Of a stretch of 64,000 nt of DNA, positions 1,242 through 7,518 are shown piece after piece (the first letter of the stretch is position 1; each line of letters starts with the position of its first letter). The translations under genes and the position numbers were made by a program. Source of the DNA: a virus (taxonomy: Duplodnaviria; Caudoviricetes). The stretch spans positions 35,757 to 99,756 of IMG/VR virus record IMGVR_UViG_3300011008_000027; one strand, written 5' to 3'. Under the pieces are notes generated by a model that saw only the letters and a program-made list of their open reading frames with translations, ran no database searches and was not told where the DNA came from.

Positions 1242-3115
1242 TTAAATATTATTAAACTGCCAGAATCCTGTTAATTCATCTTTAGCCGGCATCATGTCTT
1301 TATTTACATTACCATTAATTCTGTCGATGTACATATTAAATCTCGGATTCATTGTAGTCATAAACTTCTTACCAAAATCCATACCGATGATTCTATACAC
1401 ATTCAGCTGCTATCATGTTAATTATCATACGATAATCGCTTCTTAGTTTTTACTAAGTTACAGACTATATCTTCAGTATTTCTACTGCCTACCGTTTCGA
1501 TTTAACTGGGATTATAATTCTTATTACGAATTACCAGACTATACACTTCGTATAGCTCTACTCTACTCCCTTCGTGTAATCATTTCAGATTACCTTATTT
1601 CTATTATAATATCGCTATCATAATAAGTTGGTTTCGATAGTCGTTGAACTCATATCTCATCATTTCAATGTGAGATACTTCGTTGCGTCGATTAACTCTA
1701 TTCTCAACTTTATTACTATATCTAAGGCTATTAACCTTTGCCATCACAATATTACTAATATAACTTAGTAGTTGAGACTTAACAAGCACTCCCCGCAATT
1801 AGGTAGGTTGGGAGACAAGCTTTTTATCTCCATCATAATCACCGGCTAATAACTTAAGTATCGAATTAGGAATAGTTAATGTCTTATCATTAATATTCTT
1901 TTTAACATTTATAACACGCATTCCTAAGAATGAACCAACATTAATAGATGGATTACGATTAATAATTACATTGACATATGCTTTATTTGTATCTATAATA
2001 TATTTCATAAGATTATAGAAAACATCATCATATGATACTAATGCCATTTTCCATTTATTCTGAGCATCTAATGGTGGGCAATCATGGAGTTTACTATAAA
2101 GATTTATTAGTTCATATCTAAATAATTCCATGAATGCTATATAACACAACTCAACTTGATCTGACCTTAAAAAACCCGAACCGGGAATAATAACATTACG
2201 CGCTGAAAAATTGTATCTTCCGGAAATCGTTTTACCTTGAATTACTCCTTTTTTGCCATCAAGTAAACTGAATATCTCTTGGAATAATTCATATATCTCA
2301 CTCTGTATTATACGTATATAACGATTAACTGTATTAAGAGTATTCCAATCCATATTTTCAGGAGCCCCGAGATTGTTAATAGAATTAACCGATCTTATAA
2401 TAGATTGATAAATAGTATTTATCTTCATCTTATATAACTTCTTTGTCTTTTCACCCGGAAGTTCCATTCTAAGTATGGATGATATTACAGGTATTGATGA
2501 AGTAAATACTTTATATTTATCCATTTTAAGTTCTTTAAAGAGCTTAGCCTTTTTAACTTTTCTCTTTGCATAAAAGTCAAGCACTTCATCATAATGCTCA
2601 TAGAACCATATCATACCCTTTTTAATAAAAGGGTGTTTCTTCAATTCTTTCTCTTCCTTTTCTGAATATACAATTTCATTTTCAGAATCGAAATCAACAG
2701 CAAGAATCTTATTTAATACACTTTCACCGTTAGAAGAACCCAATGCATCTGTAAGCTTAGCTGTATATATAGGTGATATAACTTTAAAATGATTCAAAAC
2801 TATCCAACCTGTTTTGCTAAGATCGATATCAACAAATTCGACTGGGGTTCCACATTCTTCACATATGTGACCCGCAAATGCAAGTCCAATATATTTCTTA
2901 CATTGACAAGACCATCTTTCCGAATGTTGTTCATCGTCCGCAAAATCTGAACCGAAAAATGGACTTTGTAAACCGTGCATATTCTTCTGACCTTTTTTAT
3001 CATATGCATCAACCTCATTGATTAAAATGCCTTTACCTGATAATAGGTCAATGGATCTCTCAATGTCTAAATCTAATTTATCGACGTGCATCTCCACGAT
3101 ATTAGTTTCAAACAT
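1242..3115 (-). CDS. rpoC: RNA polymerase beta' N-terminal/catalytic subunit (probably non-virion RNAP), spliced: exon1 3115-1826, exon2 1409-1242, ~485 aa
   Basis: Zn motif CQC..CEEC, GKKG..GRYNFSARNVI, NRNPS; splicing restores AGDYDGD|QLN (NADFDGDQM equivalent); exon2 open for 55 aa. Confidence 0.92.
1410..1825 (-). mobile_element. group I intron (IA2-like, no ORF), 416 nt
   Basis: P1 GGAGAU/GUCUCC with U.G; P AAUUGCGGGGA, Q AAUCGACGCAAC, R UUCAACGACUA, S GAAGAUAUAGUCUG; terminal G at 1410; in-frame ligation. Confidence 0.93.
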
Positions 3116-3188
3116 CCAATCACTCCCTTTAAATAATTTAAATACACTAATGATGTGTTGCCACCAAAATAAGATATAAATCAAATTT

Positions 3189-3228
3189 AAGATAATTAGT
3201 ATACATTATATAGTATACTAATTATCTT
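3189..3228. terminator. intergenic hairpin, probable terminator
   Basis: AAGATAATTAGTATAC...GTATACTAATTATCTT just downstream of the stop at 3234. Confidence 0.65.
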
Positions 3229-3233
3229 TTTTA

Positions 3234-4852
3234 TTACATTAACAAATCATCAGGGTCTACTTCATCAAGTTTAACTTTAGCTACATGAAAACGCTTCATG
3301 TTCATGTTCATGAGTCCATTCGGTATTGTAACTGTAGTCGAACCTGCATTATATAAATTGAAGTAATTAAATATTTCCCCCGCACATTTATTACATATTT
3401 TCTTTCCCGTACAGAATAGAGGAGATCTCTTATGTACGACTTTACCTACATAACTATCTATATTATCATCATTGAGTAAGACATTTTTATCTCCCTCTAT
3501 TATATAAGAATATAAAAAATCTTTTTTATTAAATGATGTAACTTTCTGTTCTAATGTAGTTTTAGTCTTACAATCAGAACCTTTTTCATCTATTACTATT
3601 GATTGAAAAGCCGCATAGAACTTTTTGGTGAAATAACCACCCTATTTATGTTAATTATCATACGATAATCGCTTCTTTATTCACATAAAGTTACAGACTA
3701 TATCTTCAATACTTTCGTATTGCCTACCGTTTCGATTTAACTGGGTTTACATTACCTTATTACGGCTTAACACCAGACCATAAACATTTATATGGTTCTA
3801 CTCTACTCCCTTATTATTTATGGTTTCGATAGTCGTTGAACTCATACCTTATCACAATATAAGATACTTCGCTGCGTCGATTAACTCTATTCTCAACTTT
3901 ATTACTATATCTAAGGCTATTAACCTTCGCCACTATTATATTGCTATAATAGTTTAGTAGTTGAGACTTAACAAGCACTCCCCGCAATTAGATAGGTTTT
4001 ATAAGGACAATGATATTTATCCTTAGTTCCGACAGCTTTAGGGAATCCTGCATTAACTACTATATTACCAGCTATCGGAAGATCTTTCTTAGCTATTCCT
4101 TCTATATAGTTTGACTCCATCATATCATATTTTCCCGTTGCAGGATTCTGCATTGCTCCAACCATAACATTACAGTTTTTAAAGTCATTCTCAAATGAAC
4201 CTCTACCACCAGAATAATATAAGTACATTCCCGGATCATCTTTTATTAAATCGGCATTAAGTGCAACTAAGTCATCTTCAAGTTGAACTATCTTATCAAG
4301 AGGAACTTCATCACCATATTCTTTACGTAATGCAGCTACTCGCTTCTTTTTCTCTTCCATTACTTTAGGATGAGCAGTAGCTACTGCTTTTGTAAATGCA
4401 GGTGAAAATGTTATAGCAAGTTTTAATCCCCAAAATTCTACTTCTTTCACTACTCTTTGTACTACTTCCATAGTTATCTTTTTATTTACTACAGCAGGAA
4501 ATAACAAACCTAAAAAATCTGAATATGTCTTTTTATTTATTACATCCGGATTATAAAATCCATCCGGTACTATATGTGATATTTCATTCTTTTCTACTAT
4601 AATCTTATTAAATAGAAATATCCCCGGGGTGGTAATTATATCTTTAGTATTAATATATTCCCTTGCCTTAAGAGTTATCTTTCTATTCTTAGGAAGTATA
4701 GGTTCAGTCTGTTCTCCGGTTTTTACATTCATAGTAGTGCCAAAAAGTTTATTTATATCTTTAACAGTAACAGTTTTAGGATCGATATCAAATAGCATCT
4801 TTTTAAAATTATCTTCTAATTCAGTAGTTCTTTCTTTGGCTAATAATGGCAT
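3234..4852 (-). CDS. rpoC: RNA polymerase beta' middle subunit (bridge helix, Zn site, trigger loop; probably virion RNAP), spliced: exon1 4852-4019, exon2 3641-3234, ~413 aa
   Basis: SGGRGS, SNYIEG; splicing gives KAVGTKD|GGYFTKKF (cf. ALKTANSGYLTRRL), then RSPLFC..CNKC and MKRFH (cf. MRTFH). Confidence 0.92.
3642..4018 (-). mobile_element. group I intron (IA2-like, no ORF), 377 nt, paralog of 1410-1825
   Basis: P1 UAAGGAU/GUCCUUA with U.G; same P/Q/R/S elements; terminal G at 3642; P10 AUCAUU/GGUGGU; in-frame ligation. Confidence 0.93.
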
Positions 4853-4855
4853 TCA

Positions 4856-5707
4856 TTACACCTCCTGACTACATTTTAATCCCTTAAGATAACATAATAT
4901 ATCCTGATCAAATAAAGTAATATCTTCACAGTATGCATCAACTAATGTAATTATACATTTAAAGAGTACATATACAGTTAGTATTACATTAGATGCTATA
5001 GTGCAATAATCCTTATTAAGAAATTCTCCATTAGATCTATGCTTTAGATAATCAATCTTTTCAATTGTATTATCTATAAGATAATCTAACCATATAGCCT
5101 TTATCTTAATTATTTCATTTTGTATCAATTCGATTTCCTTTGCATTATCATTAGATATAGTATTTATTTGATTGAGACTATCTCTAATCATTGTATTCCT
5201 AATTCTATCGACTGTATTATCAGTATTATTATTTTTTTGGAGGAAATTAAATCTACATTCATTATTCCATTTATTAATAAATTGACTCAGTATATTAGTT
5301 ATATACAAATTCAATTCAACTGATAACTGATTATTAGCATCTATAAAAGATTTATCTTTCATAAGCCTCGGTATGTCACTATATACTTTATAAAAAGAAT
5401 CTTTAAGTATATTAGTAATAGTAGGTATTATCCTTGTATTATAATACTTTATATCCTCTTCTTTTATTAATGGAGATATTCTATTAGATTCTAATAGATT
5501 ACTAACCAAATTTTTTTGATTAGCGAGAGATGAGTTTGTAAGAATGTATACAGAAGATAATCTTGCAGCTACACGTTCAAATTCACTCTGAATCATTGTC
5601 TTTGTTTTATATAACTCTTTCTTTATATCTTCTGATAGATCTTCTGTTGTAATGAAAAATTTATCTGGATATGTACTCAATATATCCAATAATTCATTTA
5701 TATTCAT
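4856..5707 (-). CDS. hypothetical protein between RNAP genes
   Basis: 283 aa ORF, GGAGGTGG RBS, tightly packed. Confidence 0.8.
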   Translation of the reverse strand: MNINELLDILSTYPDKFFITTEDLSEDIKKELYKTKTMIQSEFERVAARLSSVYILTNSSLANQKNLVSNLLESNRISPLIKEEDIKYYNTRIIPTITNILKDSFYKVYSDIPRLMKDKSFIDANNQLSVELNLYITNILSQFINKWNNECRFNFLQKNNNTDNTVDRIRNTMIRDSLNQINTISNDNAKEIELIQNEIIKIKAIWLDYLIDNTIEKIDYLKHRSNGEFLNKDYCTIASNVILTVYVLFKCIITLVDAYCEDITLFDQDILCYLKGLKCSQEV

Positions 5708-5724: not shown

Positions 5725-7518
5725 TTAATAAACCGACATGCTATAATAGCATACTAATAATTCATTTTTAATAAATCTAACCATATTACCATTTATTCTA
5801 AAATAATTAGCAATACCATTAGACAATCTTTCAGCTTCTATATTAGCTTCATCAGAGAATACCATTTTCAATGCAACTGTATCTCCATCATAGTCAGCAC
5901 CCATTGTATCGAGATATAAGTTAGACATGTTAACTGTATCATTGAATATTGTATTCATATTATCAGGAGAAGTTTTAAGATCTATCATGGGATAGTTCTT
6001 AAATATCATCTTATCATATTCTACTCTCATAGTTTTAAGTGTAGATAATACAAATATTTTACTTGGAAACATAGAAAGATAATCAGTAATAGGATATCTA
6101 CATATGTATACATATTTATCTTTCAATGCAATCGCTGAAGCAAGATATAACAAGTCAGTCCATGTAAAGTATCTATCACCTATAGCAGATTTATTCATCT
6201 TATCATCTTTAAGAAAATCTGCAGCATGAACTCGTAGCATTCCACCACTCTTCAATGGTAACTCAACCGGTTCAAATCTTGAGCTGAATGTCTTGGTATA
6301 TAAAGATATTTTCTTGGTAATAAATTCCTGATTAAAATATTCTCGTGGATTATCAAGTTCAACAAATTTTCGAGTACCATCAGGCATCAATGTCGGGTAT
6401 TTATTTCCATATTTATATTCAAAATTTTCAGCTACAAAATCACTTATCCATTTAAGTACAAATGGAAATCCTAATGAGCAGCATTGTGCTATAGGTATTC
6501 CTGTATGTTGCATATCAATGTTTATTTCAGATGGATTTTTTAATCCTGACATAAGAGGAACTGAGATAACTGATCTTGATCCATAATCCGGGTTCTTACC
6601 AAGTATTGCTTTATGAAAGAAACCATTTTTCATACTAATTAATGACTGACCATATTTTCTTATTTGAACTAATGTAGATTGTATTCTATATTGTGTAACA
6701 TTTCCTACCGAACCTATTAATTCATCACCATTAGAATTAGCATAACTAATAAGTTTATCATAGAAATCATTTATCTCATTAATCTGAGTTCTGGAAGATG
6801 AATGCTCTATATCTCTGTATATTACAGGTATTACTATATATTTAGTAATGAATATAGATCCGTCTTTTATAATTGATTCAATAAAATCAAGTCTTTCATC
6901 TCTTATACGAGAAGTATTTCTTTCAAACTGCAATTTATGGAAATTCTCTATTAGCCAGATTAAACCTGTATCTGCACTATCAAAAAAGTCATCAGGATCT
7001 GATTCTTTAGCAACTAGTTTTCCATCTTTAATCTCCCACGATCCTTCTCCTTTAGCACATTTATCTATTTTAGCATCTAATTTAACAAGTATTTCATATG
7101 CATAAGGGTGAAAAAATTTCCCTCCGAGATCGATATAAGCACAATTGTTAGTTCTTTCCTCTTTAGTAGATCCAAATATTTCTATAGAAAATACACCATT
7201 AGGTGATGGAGTTCCTTCTCTATCAAATGGGATAGACGATGATACTCTTGGTAAACCCGCATCTTCTATCATTTTATCCGTAACAAGATCTACTTTCATA
7301 TGATCATGTCGTACAGTTTTAAGTTTATCAAAAAGACCAACATCAGAGTTATTTTCAGCTTCATAAACTGCCATTTGATCTATTTCTCTTATAAAATCTA
7401 TAGCTTCGGATTTAAGATGCGGGGCATCGTTATATAAGCTTTCTAATAGAGCTTCAAAGATTCTATTATTATTTTCGATTTCATTAAAACTTCTATCTAG
7501 TTTATAATCCAATTGCAT
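5725..7518 (-). CDS. rpoC: RNA polymerase beta' N-terminal/catalytic subunit (probably virion RNAP) with ~55-70 aa acidic N-terminal extension
   Basis: GVFSIEIFG, ILGKNPDYGSRSVI, CRYPI, MGADYDGDT catalytic motif. Confidence 0.92.
   Translation of the reverse strand: MQLDYKLDRSFNEIENNNRIFEALLESLYNDAPHLKSEAIDFIREIDQMAVYEAENNSDVGLFDKLKTVRHDHMKVDLVTDKMIEDAGLPRVSSSIPFDREGTPSPNGVFSIEIFGSTKEERTNNCAYIDLGGKFFHPYAYEILVKLDAKIDKCAKGEGSWEIKDGKLVAKESDPDDFFDSADTGLIWLIENFHKLQFERNTSRIRDERLDFIESIIKDGSIFITKYIVIPVIYRDIEHSSSRTQINEINDFYDKLISYANSNGDELIGSVGNVTQYRIQSTLVQIRKYGQSLISMKNGFFHKAILGKNPDYGSRSVISVPLMSGLKNPSEINIDMQHTGIPIAQCCSLGFPFVLKWISDFVAENFEYKYGNKYPTLMPDGTRKFVELDNPREYFNQEFITKKISLYTKTFSSRFEPVELPLKSGGMLRVHAADFLKDDKMNKSAIGDRYFTWTDLLYLASAIALKDKYVYICRYPITDYLSMFPSKIFVLSTLKTMRVEYDKMIFKNYPMIDLKTSPDNMNTIFNDTVNMSNLYLDTMGADYDGDTVALKMVFSDEANIEAERLSNGIANYFRINGNMVRFIKNELLVCYYSMSVY

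Follow-up and report, generated by a model that had tools for sequence, protein, structure and literature searches.

The window analysed here, a 64,000-nucleotide stretch formed by bases 35757-99756 of the 99,756-bp IMG/VR virus contig IMGVR_UViG_3300011008_000027, carries two closely similar group I introns, A and B, in adjacent genes for beta' subunits of RNA polymerase (RNAP). A third sibling, intron C, surfaced on searching the whole contig and lies outside the window in a kinase-like gene. We consider it probable that these group I introns descended from one intron that multiplied in this phage lineage, with guide-limited insertion, and without a resident endonuclease, as the preferred way to their sites. 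The spread within the lineage with retargeted guides is well supported, and the route of insertion, like the presence or absence of an endonuclease at the time of the spread, is what we infer. CheckV estimates the completeness of the contig at ~40%. The source is an uncultured AR9-like jumbo phage, distantly related (protein identity 25-36%) to AR9/PBS1, phiR1-37 and the Staphylococcus jumbo phages, and a megablast search with an 8-kb query against GenBank phages gave no match.

All genes around introns A and B lie on the minus strand. Exon 1 of gene A (1826..3115, 430 aa) encodes the beta' N-terminal subunit of the non-virion RNAP (nvRNAP) up to ...AGDYDGD, and is followed by intron A (1410..1825, 416 nt), which starts with AAAAAG after GGAGAU and ends in a terminal G (GAUAG), and by exon 2 (1242..1409, 55 aa and a stop), whose translation starts QLNVYRIIG. 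Exon 1 of gene B (4019..4852, 278 aa) encodes the beta' C-terminal subunit of the virion RNAP (vRNAP) up to ...AVGTKD; intron B (3642..4018, 377 nt) starts with AAAUAU after UAAGGAU and also ends in a terminal G (AAAUAG), and exon 2 (3234..3641, 135 aa and a stop) starts with GGYFTKKFYAAFQ (GGYFTKKF), the second half of the bridge helix. Intron C (genome 10150-10520, or L002:1498-1868, minus strand) splits the kinase-like gene between ...NTLVILD and YGYLYPRF. The exon ends read GGAGAT|...|CAGCTG for A and AAGGAT|...|GGTGGT for B, and all three introns stand in phase 0 behind a GAU Asp codon and end in ...AUAG. Each of them has an in-frame stop 7 to 18 codons inside, and their sole open reading frames (ORFs), of 57-64 aa, overlap the conserved core and gave no Pfam match. 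The original prediction, made from the window alone, had described A and B as twin ORF-less group I introns behind GAU codons. Their positions (1410-1825 and 3642-4018) were right, the four core strings that it quoted occur in both, and the phase and the lack of coding capacity were borne out. The two are indeed near-identical and sit in adjacent beta' genes, but the sibling at genome 10150-10520 turns the twins into triplets.

Judging from their sequence, A, B and C are probably genuine group I (IA-type) introns without protein-coding capacity, for which self-splicing is predicted. We aligned 18 compact members of the family, including the AR9 and Internexus introns, with MAFFT, which takes no account of structure, and scored a hand-drawn model of P3, P4, P5, P5a-c, P6, P7 and P8 in which P3 and P7 cross. 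In this alignment, 87.6% of the model cells were paired, compared with 36-45% when the 3' partners were slid by 1-3 columns. Changes on both sides were seen in 38 of the 58 pairs, and none of 500 shuffles reached the observed values. P3 was 96% paired with all six pairs covarying, while P7 (GACUA/UAGUC) was invariant and crosses P3, giving the group I pseudoknot. Exact-match genome scans located the R element, which includes the 5' strand of P7 (GUUCAACGACUAUCGAAA; 1632..1649 in intron A, 3824-3841 in intron B, minus strand), and the S element, which comprises J8/7 and the 3' strand of P7 (AAGAUAUAGUCUG; 1461..1473 and 3694-3706, minus strand). The R element is invariant in the 18 family members, and the catalytic junctions and P7 of all three introns are identical to those of the annotated AR9 introns. 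An unconstrained minimum free energy fold of intron B yielded P3, P4, P5, P5a-c, P6, P8 and P9 (z = -2.59); its region 195-240 gave spurious broken pairs, and only the conserved helices were relied on. The extra helices P7.1/P7.2, which lie between the 5' strand of P7 and the 3' strand of P3, place the family in the phage-type subgroup IA. Intron A has two hairpins in the P7.1 region as well as P7.2, and the P7.1 hairpins are kept in the outside relatives; B and C have P7.2 only, after a deletion of 42-51 nt.

The check with Infernal and the Rfam group I models that accompanied the original prediction came out negative: cmscan returned nothing relevant, either for the whole window at the gathering score or for a 3.1-kb region at E<=10. 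As a control, the same search was run on the loci of relatives, and even at E<=1 RF00028 missed the annotated AR9 g270 and g145 introns and the Internexus gyrB intron (L006, L116 and L005), as well as copy C. Its sole match was an element of Vibrio phage Yong XC31, which scored 69.9 bits over the full model and is 74% identical to intron B across P3-P7. The negative result is a sensitivity limit of RF00028 and not a failure of membership, because the model also misses annotated AR9 introns yet matches this Vibrio relative. Group I identity, as originally claimed, is thus supported by covariation together with homology to the Rfam-positive Vibrio phage element. Searches of IMG/VR with an exact 23-nt core pattern gave no match, and a scan with the 19-nt R element gave more than 106 loci.

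Each of the introns has guide sequences that fit its own exons. The internal guides that form the 3' strand of P1 are GUCUCC in intron A (1811..1816, minus strand), pairing with the exon end GGAGAU, and GUCCUUA in intron B (4002..4008, minus strand), pairing with UAAGGAU; in intron C, AUUGGAU pairs with GUCCAGU, and in all cases a U.G wobble stands at the 5' splice site. The predicted P10 helices are AGCU/AGCU, AUCAUU/GGUGGU and GCCAU/AUGGC for A, B and C, respectively. In a 3x3 matrix of duplex energies, the cognate P1 and P10 were always the best combination, in agreement with the earlier claim that each intron has its own P1 and a plausible P10. Cognate P1 helices reached -8.0, -7.3 and -6.8 kcal/mol (A, B, C), and non-cognate exons gave -2.9 to -5.0 kcal/mol (-2.9 and -3.8 for the guide of intron A, -3.8 and -3.9 for that of intron B). 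What the guides share is splice-proximal: GAU/GUC is common to all three and GGAU/GUCC to B and C. Of 24 flanking positions, 14 are the same at the target sites of B and C (P ~0.002, without correction for the three pairs), and the site of intron A matches those of B and C at chance level outside GAT. Among 69 automatically detected P1 helices of the wider family, GAU is the commonest 5' exon end (19), and GGAU recurs in unrelated genes.

The three copies are each other's closest kin among the introns compared. Mean column identity between A and B is 87%, and an ungapped pairwise count gives 85.5%; by the latter measure A and C are 89.5% and B and C 92.5% identical. Where the copies differ in P5b, P6, P8 and P9, the changes are largely compensatory, one of them being a C-G pair inserted in P8 of intron B. 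In the guide region 65% of the columns vary, compared with 17% of paired positions and 8% of the unpaired core, and this pattern points to ribozymes that would have stayed functional once duplicated. When 24 cores were placed in a maximum-likelihood tree, A, B and C came out as a clade (support 98/96), and the L141 and L144 introns were the nearest outsiders; the closest relatives of the copies do not lie in different lineages, an outcome that would have spoken against common descent within this phage. Outside introns were sampled from contigs matching two exact core patterns, and a metagenome scan added at least 74 further family loci (L145-L218). The best outside introns among the matches listed reach 79-81% identity over ~160-185 nt.

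Many metagenome contigs hold two to four sibling copies with a pairwise identity of 77-92% (for example, Ga0326513_10000070, Ga0326513_10000661, Ga0310695_10000098 and OBLI01000003.1), and because of this, multiplication of this subfamily within a genome appears to be common among uncultured jumbo phages. Such contigs come in number from rumen and gut jumbo phages, and empty sites survive in relatives.

The identity of the host genes bears on what the introns interrupt. Exon 1 of gene A matches phrog_2987 (5.4e-56, profile positions 11-422 of 478), and its best annotated relative is AR9 g270, annotated as the nvRNAP beta' N-terminus. The best annotated relatives of gene B are AR9 g264, annotated as the vRNAP beta' C-terminus, and Madawaska gp161, and phrog_2962 spans intron B, with exon 1 covering positions 57-298 and exon 2 positions 300-431 (1.4e-34). 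Both RNAP host genes have the marks of beta', namely the catalytic (N/G)ADxDGD motif in the N-terminal piece, the bridge helix in the C-terminal piece, and colinearity with homologues. The segment split by intron B aligns to TAD-SGYLTRKL of the Thermus and cyanobacterial beta' with weak E-values of 0.001-0.01, and this stretch we take to be the bridge helix from established RNAP structure. The two sites are thus non-homologous, as had been proposed, with intron A after DYDGD and intron B in the bridge-helix segment. Because gene A is closest to AR9 g270 (nvRNAP) and gene B to g264 (vRNAP), both phage polymerases would need RNA splicing, which agrees with the original prediction. The product of gene C is a 253-aa kinase-like protein with a C-terminal zinc ribbon, and its intron lies between VILD and YGY, in a DFG-like motif; exon 1 matches phrog_4301, to which no function is assigned, and nearly all of the 120 homologues listed are full length (~250-290 aa).

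Related loci were retrieved with a profile built from homologues, after searches with single exon proteins had found no relatives. The predicted spliced proteins align without gaps across the joins to phiR1-37 g274, AR9 g264 and Madawaska gp161. The same holds for spliced A, B and C against their uninterrupted homologues P0017 (486 aa), P0004 (410 aa) and P0137 (254 aa), in which the residues flanking the joins are identical or nearly so; over the gene B junction they are identical to P0004. P0017 is 81% identical to exon 1 of gene A and 82.9% to the spliced protein, and P0004 and P0137 are 71% and 79% identical to exon 1 of genes B and C; over the spliced proteins, the identity is 73-83%. P0017 and P0004 are apparently encoded by one 10,692-bp contig. 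Because the closest relatives have none of the three host genes interrupted, three gains inside this phage lineage from one source would be the simplest history. The earlier proposal of intragenomic transposition with retargeted guides is supported by the common ancestry, the cognate guides and the empty sites in relatives; its route may lie at the RNA level, at the DNA level or with an insertion sequence.

In the mechanism that we propose, P1, with its U.G wobble, would form between the last 6-7 exon bases, ending in GAU, and the guide of the intron itself, and P10 between the bases just 5' of the guide and the start of the 3' exon. The P3-P9 core, which is conserved, would then catalyse two transesterifications, ending at the terminal G. 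Splicing would restore the nvRNAP beta' N-terminal subunit (DYDGD|QLNVY), the vRNAP beta' C-terminal subunit (TKD|GGYF) and the kinase-like protein (VILD|YGY), and the early in-frame stops in the introns may keep ribosomes off the core. As for the origin, the ancestral intron may have inserted at unrelated sites, alike in nothing but the splice-proximal (G)GAU, which would pair with the inherited guide core GUC(C), and the distal P1 and P10 bases would later have come to fit each new site. The route that we prefer would be either reverse splicing at the RNA level or insertion at the DNA level filtered by the ability to splice; a conserved P1 core alone cannot tell RNA-level targeting from DNA-level insertion with selection for splicing. 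In its narrowest form, this account would have an endonuclease-free intron copied recently to three unrelated genes by reverse splicing or an equivalent, with the sites set only by a match of 3-4 bases of the guide core (GAU/GUC or GGAU/GUCC), and with P1 and P10 retuned afterwards. We put this narrow form forward tentatively, as less likely than not.

Several points weigh against multiplication from one intron by guide-limited insertion. The target of intron A shares GAU only, which is very little for guide-directed insertion. A free-standing endonuclease, a reverse transcriptase or a transposase could sit in the remaining ~60% of the genome. Sampling by two exact core patterns may have passed over a closer outside relative, and, with three sequences, gene conversion among the copies is inseparable from simple divergence. 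The Rfam group I model leaves introns A, B and C unscored, B and C are without the P7.1 hairpins, and the catalytic activity and splicing of the three introns are themselves predictions. On the matter of mobility genes, no match to HNH, GIY-YIG, LAGLIDADG, RVT, Y1_Tnp or TnpB was found in the 99.7-kb contig (~40% of the genome), in line with the earlier statement that there is no endonuclease in cis; the suggested search for free-standing HNH or GIY-YIG genes likewise found none in this part of the genome.

The main rival is transposition mediated by an insertion sequence (IS). A, B and C would then be stripped-down IStrons, that is, composites of a group I intron and an IS200/IS605 or IS607 element such as CdISt1, BcISt1 and the elements of the C. 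botulinum phage c-st (PMC4227781; bioRxiv 10.1101/2023.11.20.567912), moved by an IS200/IS605- or IS607-type TnpA in trans, with TnpB possibly retaining them and (G)GAT serving as the short 5' target motif and not as a constraint of splicing. Published group A IStrons insert after TTGAT, ATTAT or TTTAT with specificity on the 5' side only, and spread as ORF-less copies (PMC4227781), which lends this explanation some weight. Members of the family itself do so as well. A complete IStron of the same subfamily, L169:7012-8840 (plus strand), consists of the ribozyme core, a 440-aa TnpB and a 3' tail of ~190 nt; its TnpB matches PF07282 at 1.3e-11 and PF01385 at 28.7 bits, below the cut-off of 30.5 bits. 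It is inserted after AAGGAU with the guide GUCCUU, the same P1 as that of intron B, in a different gene. In L141, the homologue of this host gene is the ORF that lies upstream of the gene B homologue; exon 2 of the L169 host gene resumes with KNARDNDTESF. We rejected the L169 intron as an orthologue of intron B, its host being a different neighbour of the RNAP genes. Furthermore, four ORF-less copies (L187 at ~2750, plus strand; L212, minus strand; L198, minus strand; and a minus-strand copy in L169) carry the identical guide GUUCAU(G) and follow AUGAAU in four unrelated genes. Two of them share one 74.5-kb contig, and they keep the IStron-type 3' tail. These four copies are a signature of spread directed by a short target; a paralogous MN|ADFDGD site was considered for them and rejected, as the four exon contexts are unrelated.

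Considering the three introns of this phage, the IStron explanation fares less well. They contain no IS remnant and lack the 3'-tail hairpin seen in L169. In L169, tnpB and the tail sit inside a helix; in A, B and C, this helix ends in a loop of four bases (AUUAUC-GUAU-GAUAAU). In addition, neither Y1_Tnp nor TnpB was matched in the contig. TnpB adjoins the intron in one of ~170 family loci listed, with one more TnpB cut at a contig end, and the three target sites share GAT only, which is shorter than known IS200/IS605 targets. Because there is no IS remnant in the introns and no transposase in the contig, and the module helix is closed by a loop, we keep IS-mediated transposition as a rival and not as the best explanation, and regard it as unlikely for A, B and C.

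Separate arrival by endonuclease homing from other phages, followed by loss of the endonucleases, would explain the likeness of the cores by older ancestry. In its favour, relatives that carry an endonuclease do occur near both RNAP sites. Introns cluster at the catalytic motif of the nvRNAP beta' N-terminal gene, a hot spot where three or more different insertion bonds fall inside four codons. The bond NAD|FDGD is used in L130, L122 and L119, and the nearby bond NADF| in L118; DYDG|D is used in AR9 g270 (L006), one codon upstream of DYDGD|Q used here, by an intron with an HNH gene. The L118 and L119 introns are of a different type; at least two unrelated types of ribozyme occupy the hot spot. 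The L122 intron likely encodes a GIY-YIG protein, a motif recognised by eye. In the gene B orthologue of L141 and L144, an HNH intron of the same family (L141:6712-8000) stands 11 nt upstream of the intron B site, and other homologues are interrupted elsewhere or uninterrupted. The L141/L144 endonuclease shows an HNH_3 and a borderline NUMOD4 match, and its ORF has an unusual place in the P1 loop, with the 5' splice site before it and the guide after it. This intron is the closest relative among the IMG/VR viral contig matches listed; some metagenome copies have slightly higher scores. However, none of the AR9, L141/L144 and L122 introns sits at the same phosphodiester bond as A or B, and no outside intron was found at the kinase site, for which nearly all of the 120 homologues listed are full length. 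Full-length identity among A, B and C is 85-92%, as opposed to at most 81% over a partial length for the outside introns listed, and the three form the 98/96 clade. Separate homing is accordingly quite improbable in our view.

Alternatively, the introns could be old residents of the three sites whose cores were homogenised by gene conversion while selection preserved the guides. The differences do come in blocks, with C like A in P5b, P8 and P9 and like B in P6, P7.1 and P7.2, and other phage contigs hold two to four siblings at 77-92% identity. Such a history needs the loss of the intron from all three sites in the closest relatives, which are uninterrupted at 71-81% protein identity, and a block pattern is also expected from helix-wise compensatory change on a simple three-branch tree; we rate its chances as very small. 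That the inserts are inactive relics or spacers, with gene halves translated separately or the genes broken, is the least credible explanation of all, in spite of the missing Rfam match and the missing P7.1 hairpins of B and C, given that annotated AR9 introns have exactly the same catalytic junctions and P7, that the changes between copies are compensatory, that exon 2 begins with Gln in A and with Gly in B, neither at a start codon, and that the splits fall within the catalytic Asp triad motif and the bridge helix. We know of no functional RNAP in which either of these two elements is divided between separate chains.

Multiplication of one intron within the lineage, the reading that we prefer, can be set beside known systems. 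The kind of element is already known: jumbo-phage RNAP genes are, according to the literature, frequently disrupted by introns, with cases in AR9, the Staphylococcus jumbo phages and PhiPA3, and the original prediction had rightly pointed to such introns. The likeness to AR9 extends to the phage group (25-36% protein identity, three beta'-type genes), the class of host gene, the ribozyme family with identical R and S elements, the GGGAGUAGAGUA motif, and the P7.1/P7.2 extensions. On the other hand, g270 is split after DYDG and gene A after DYDGD, and no intron interrupts the AR9 orthologue of gene B, g264; an HNH gene lies in the AR9 g270 intron, whereas the introns here are without one and are present in three copies of 85-92% identity. 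In PhiPA3, the homing endonuclease of an RNAP-gene intron nicks the vRNAP gene of PhiKZ (Birkholz et al. 2024, as summarised in PMC12908238). The two cases are alike in having a group I intron at a conserved site of a jumbo-phage multisubunit RNAP gene, and differ in that the biology of the PhiPA3 intron rests on its endonuclease, of which there is none in the introns or in the 99.7-kb contig here.

With the IStrons, our introns share multiple copies, heterologous sites, a short conserved target on the 5' side only and ORF-less derivatives, besides the TnpB-bearing L169 in the same subfamily. The IStron ribozyme is of the IA2 type, and the introns here were placed in subgroup IA; they differ in that an IS module and an end hairpin like that of L169 are absent, and in that the contig has no transposase. 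Ectopic spread of group I introns by reverse splicing has been modelled from circumstantial evidence on ribosomal DNA (rDNA) introns (PMC3984707, PMC1299323), and the pathway has no direct experimental support anywhere (PMC3984707). Our case resembles this model in that related introns occupy heterologous sites, share few guide-complementary bases and bring no co-converted exon sequence; it differs in that phage genes for proteins serve as hosts, that the guides have diverged from one another, and that a search of the contig gave no reverse transcriptase.

Two genes next to these loci complete the arrangement. A second beta' N-terminal-type gene, uninterrupted and of the virion-RNAP type (5725..7518, minus strand), has an ADYDGD motif, matches phrog_2986 at 1.6e-80 and has colinear tblastn matches in 278 jumbo-phage records. 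Between it and the vRNAP beta' C-terminal gene lies a gene for a 283-aa protein (4856-5707, minus strand) of unassigned function with weak PHROG and Pfam matches.

In summary, the value of these introns lies in their configuration: three siblings of 85-92% identity, with no mobility gene seen, at unrelated sites, with fitted guides and with intron-free alleles in the closest relatives. For annotation, this means that both beta' genes and the kinase-like gene of this phage come out truncated from gene callers, and that Rfam-based screens will miss or undercount this intron subfamily. The way in which group I introns without ORFs come to new sites has long been a question for which the rDNA evidence is circumstantial (PMC3984707), and the phage described here offers a clean natural case of the ectopic spread of one intron with retargeted guides. 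Together with the multi-copy contigs, it makes up a tractable set of recent insertion events. If guide-limited spread is true, this would be the first data set from phage protein genes for testing ectopic group I transposition, both by statistics and at the bench.

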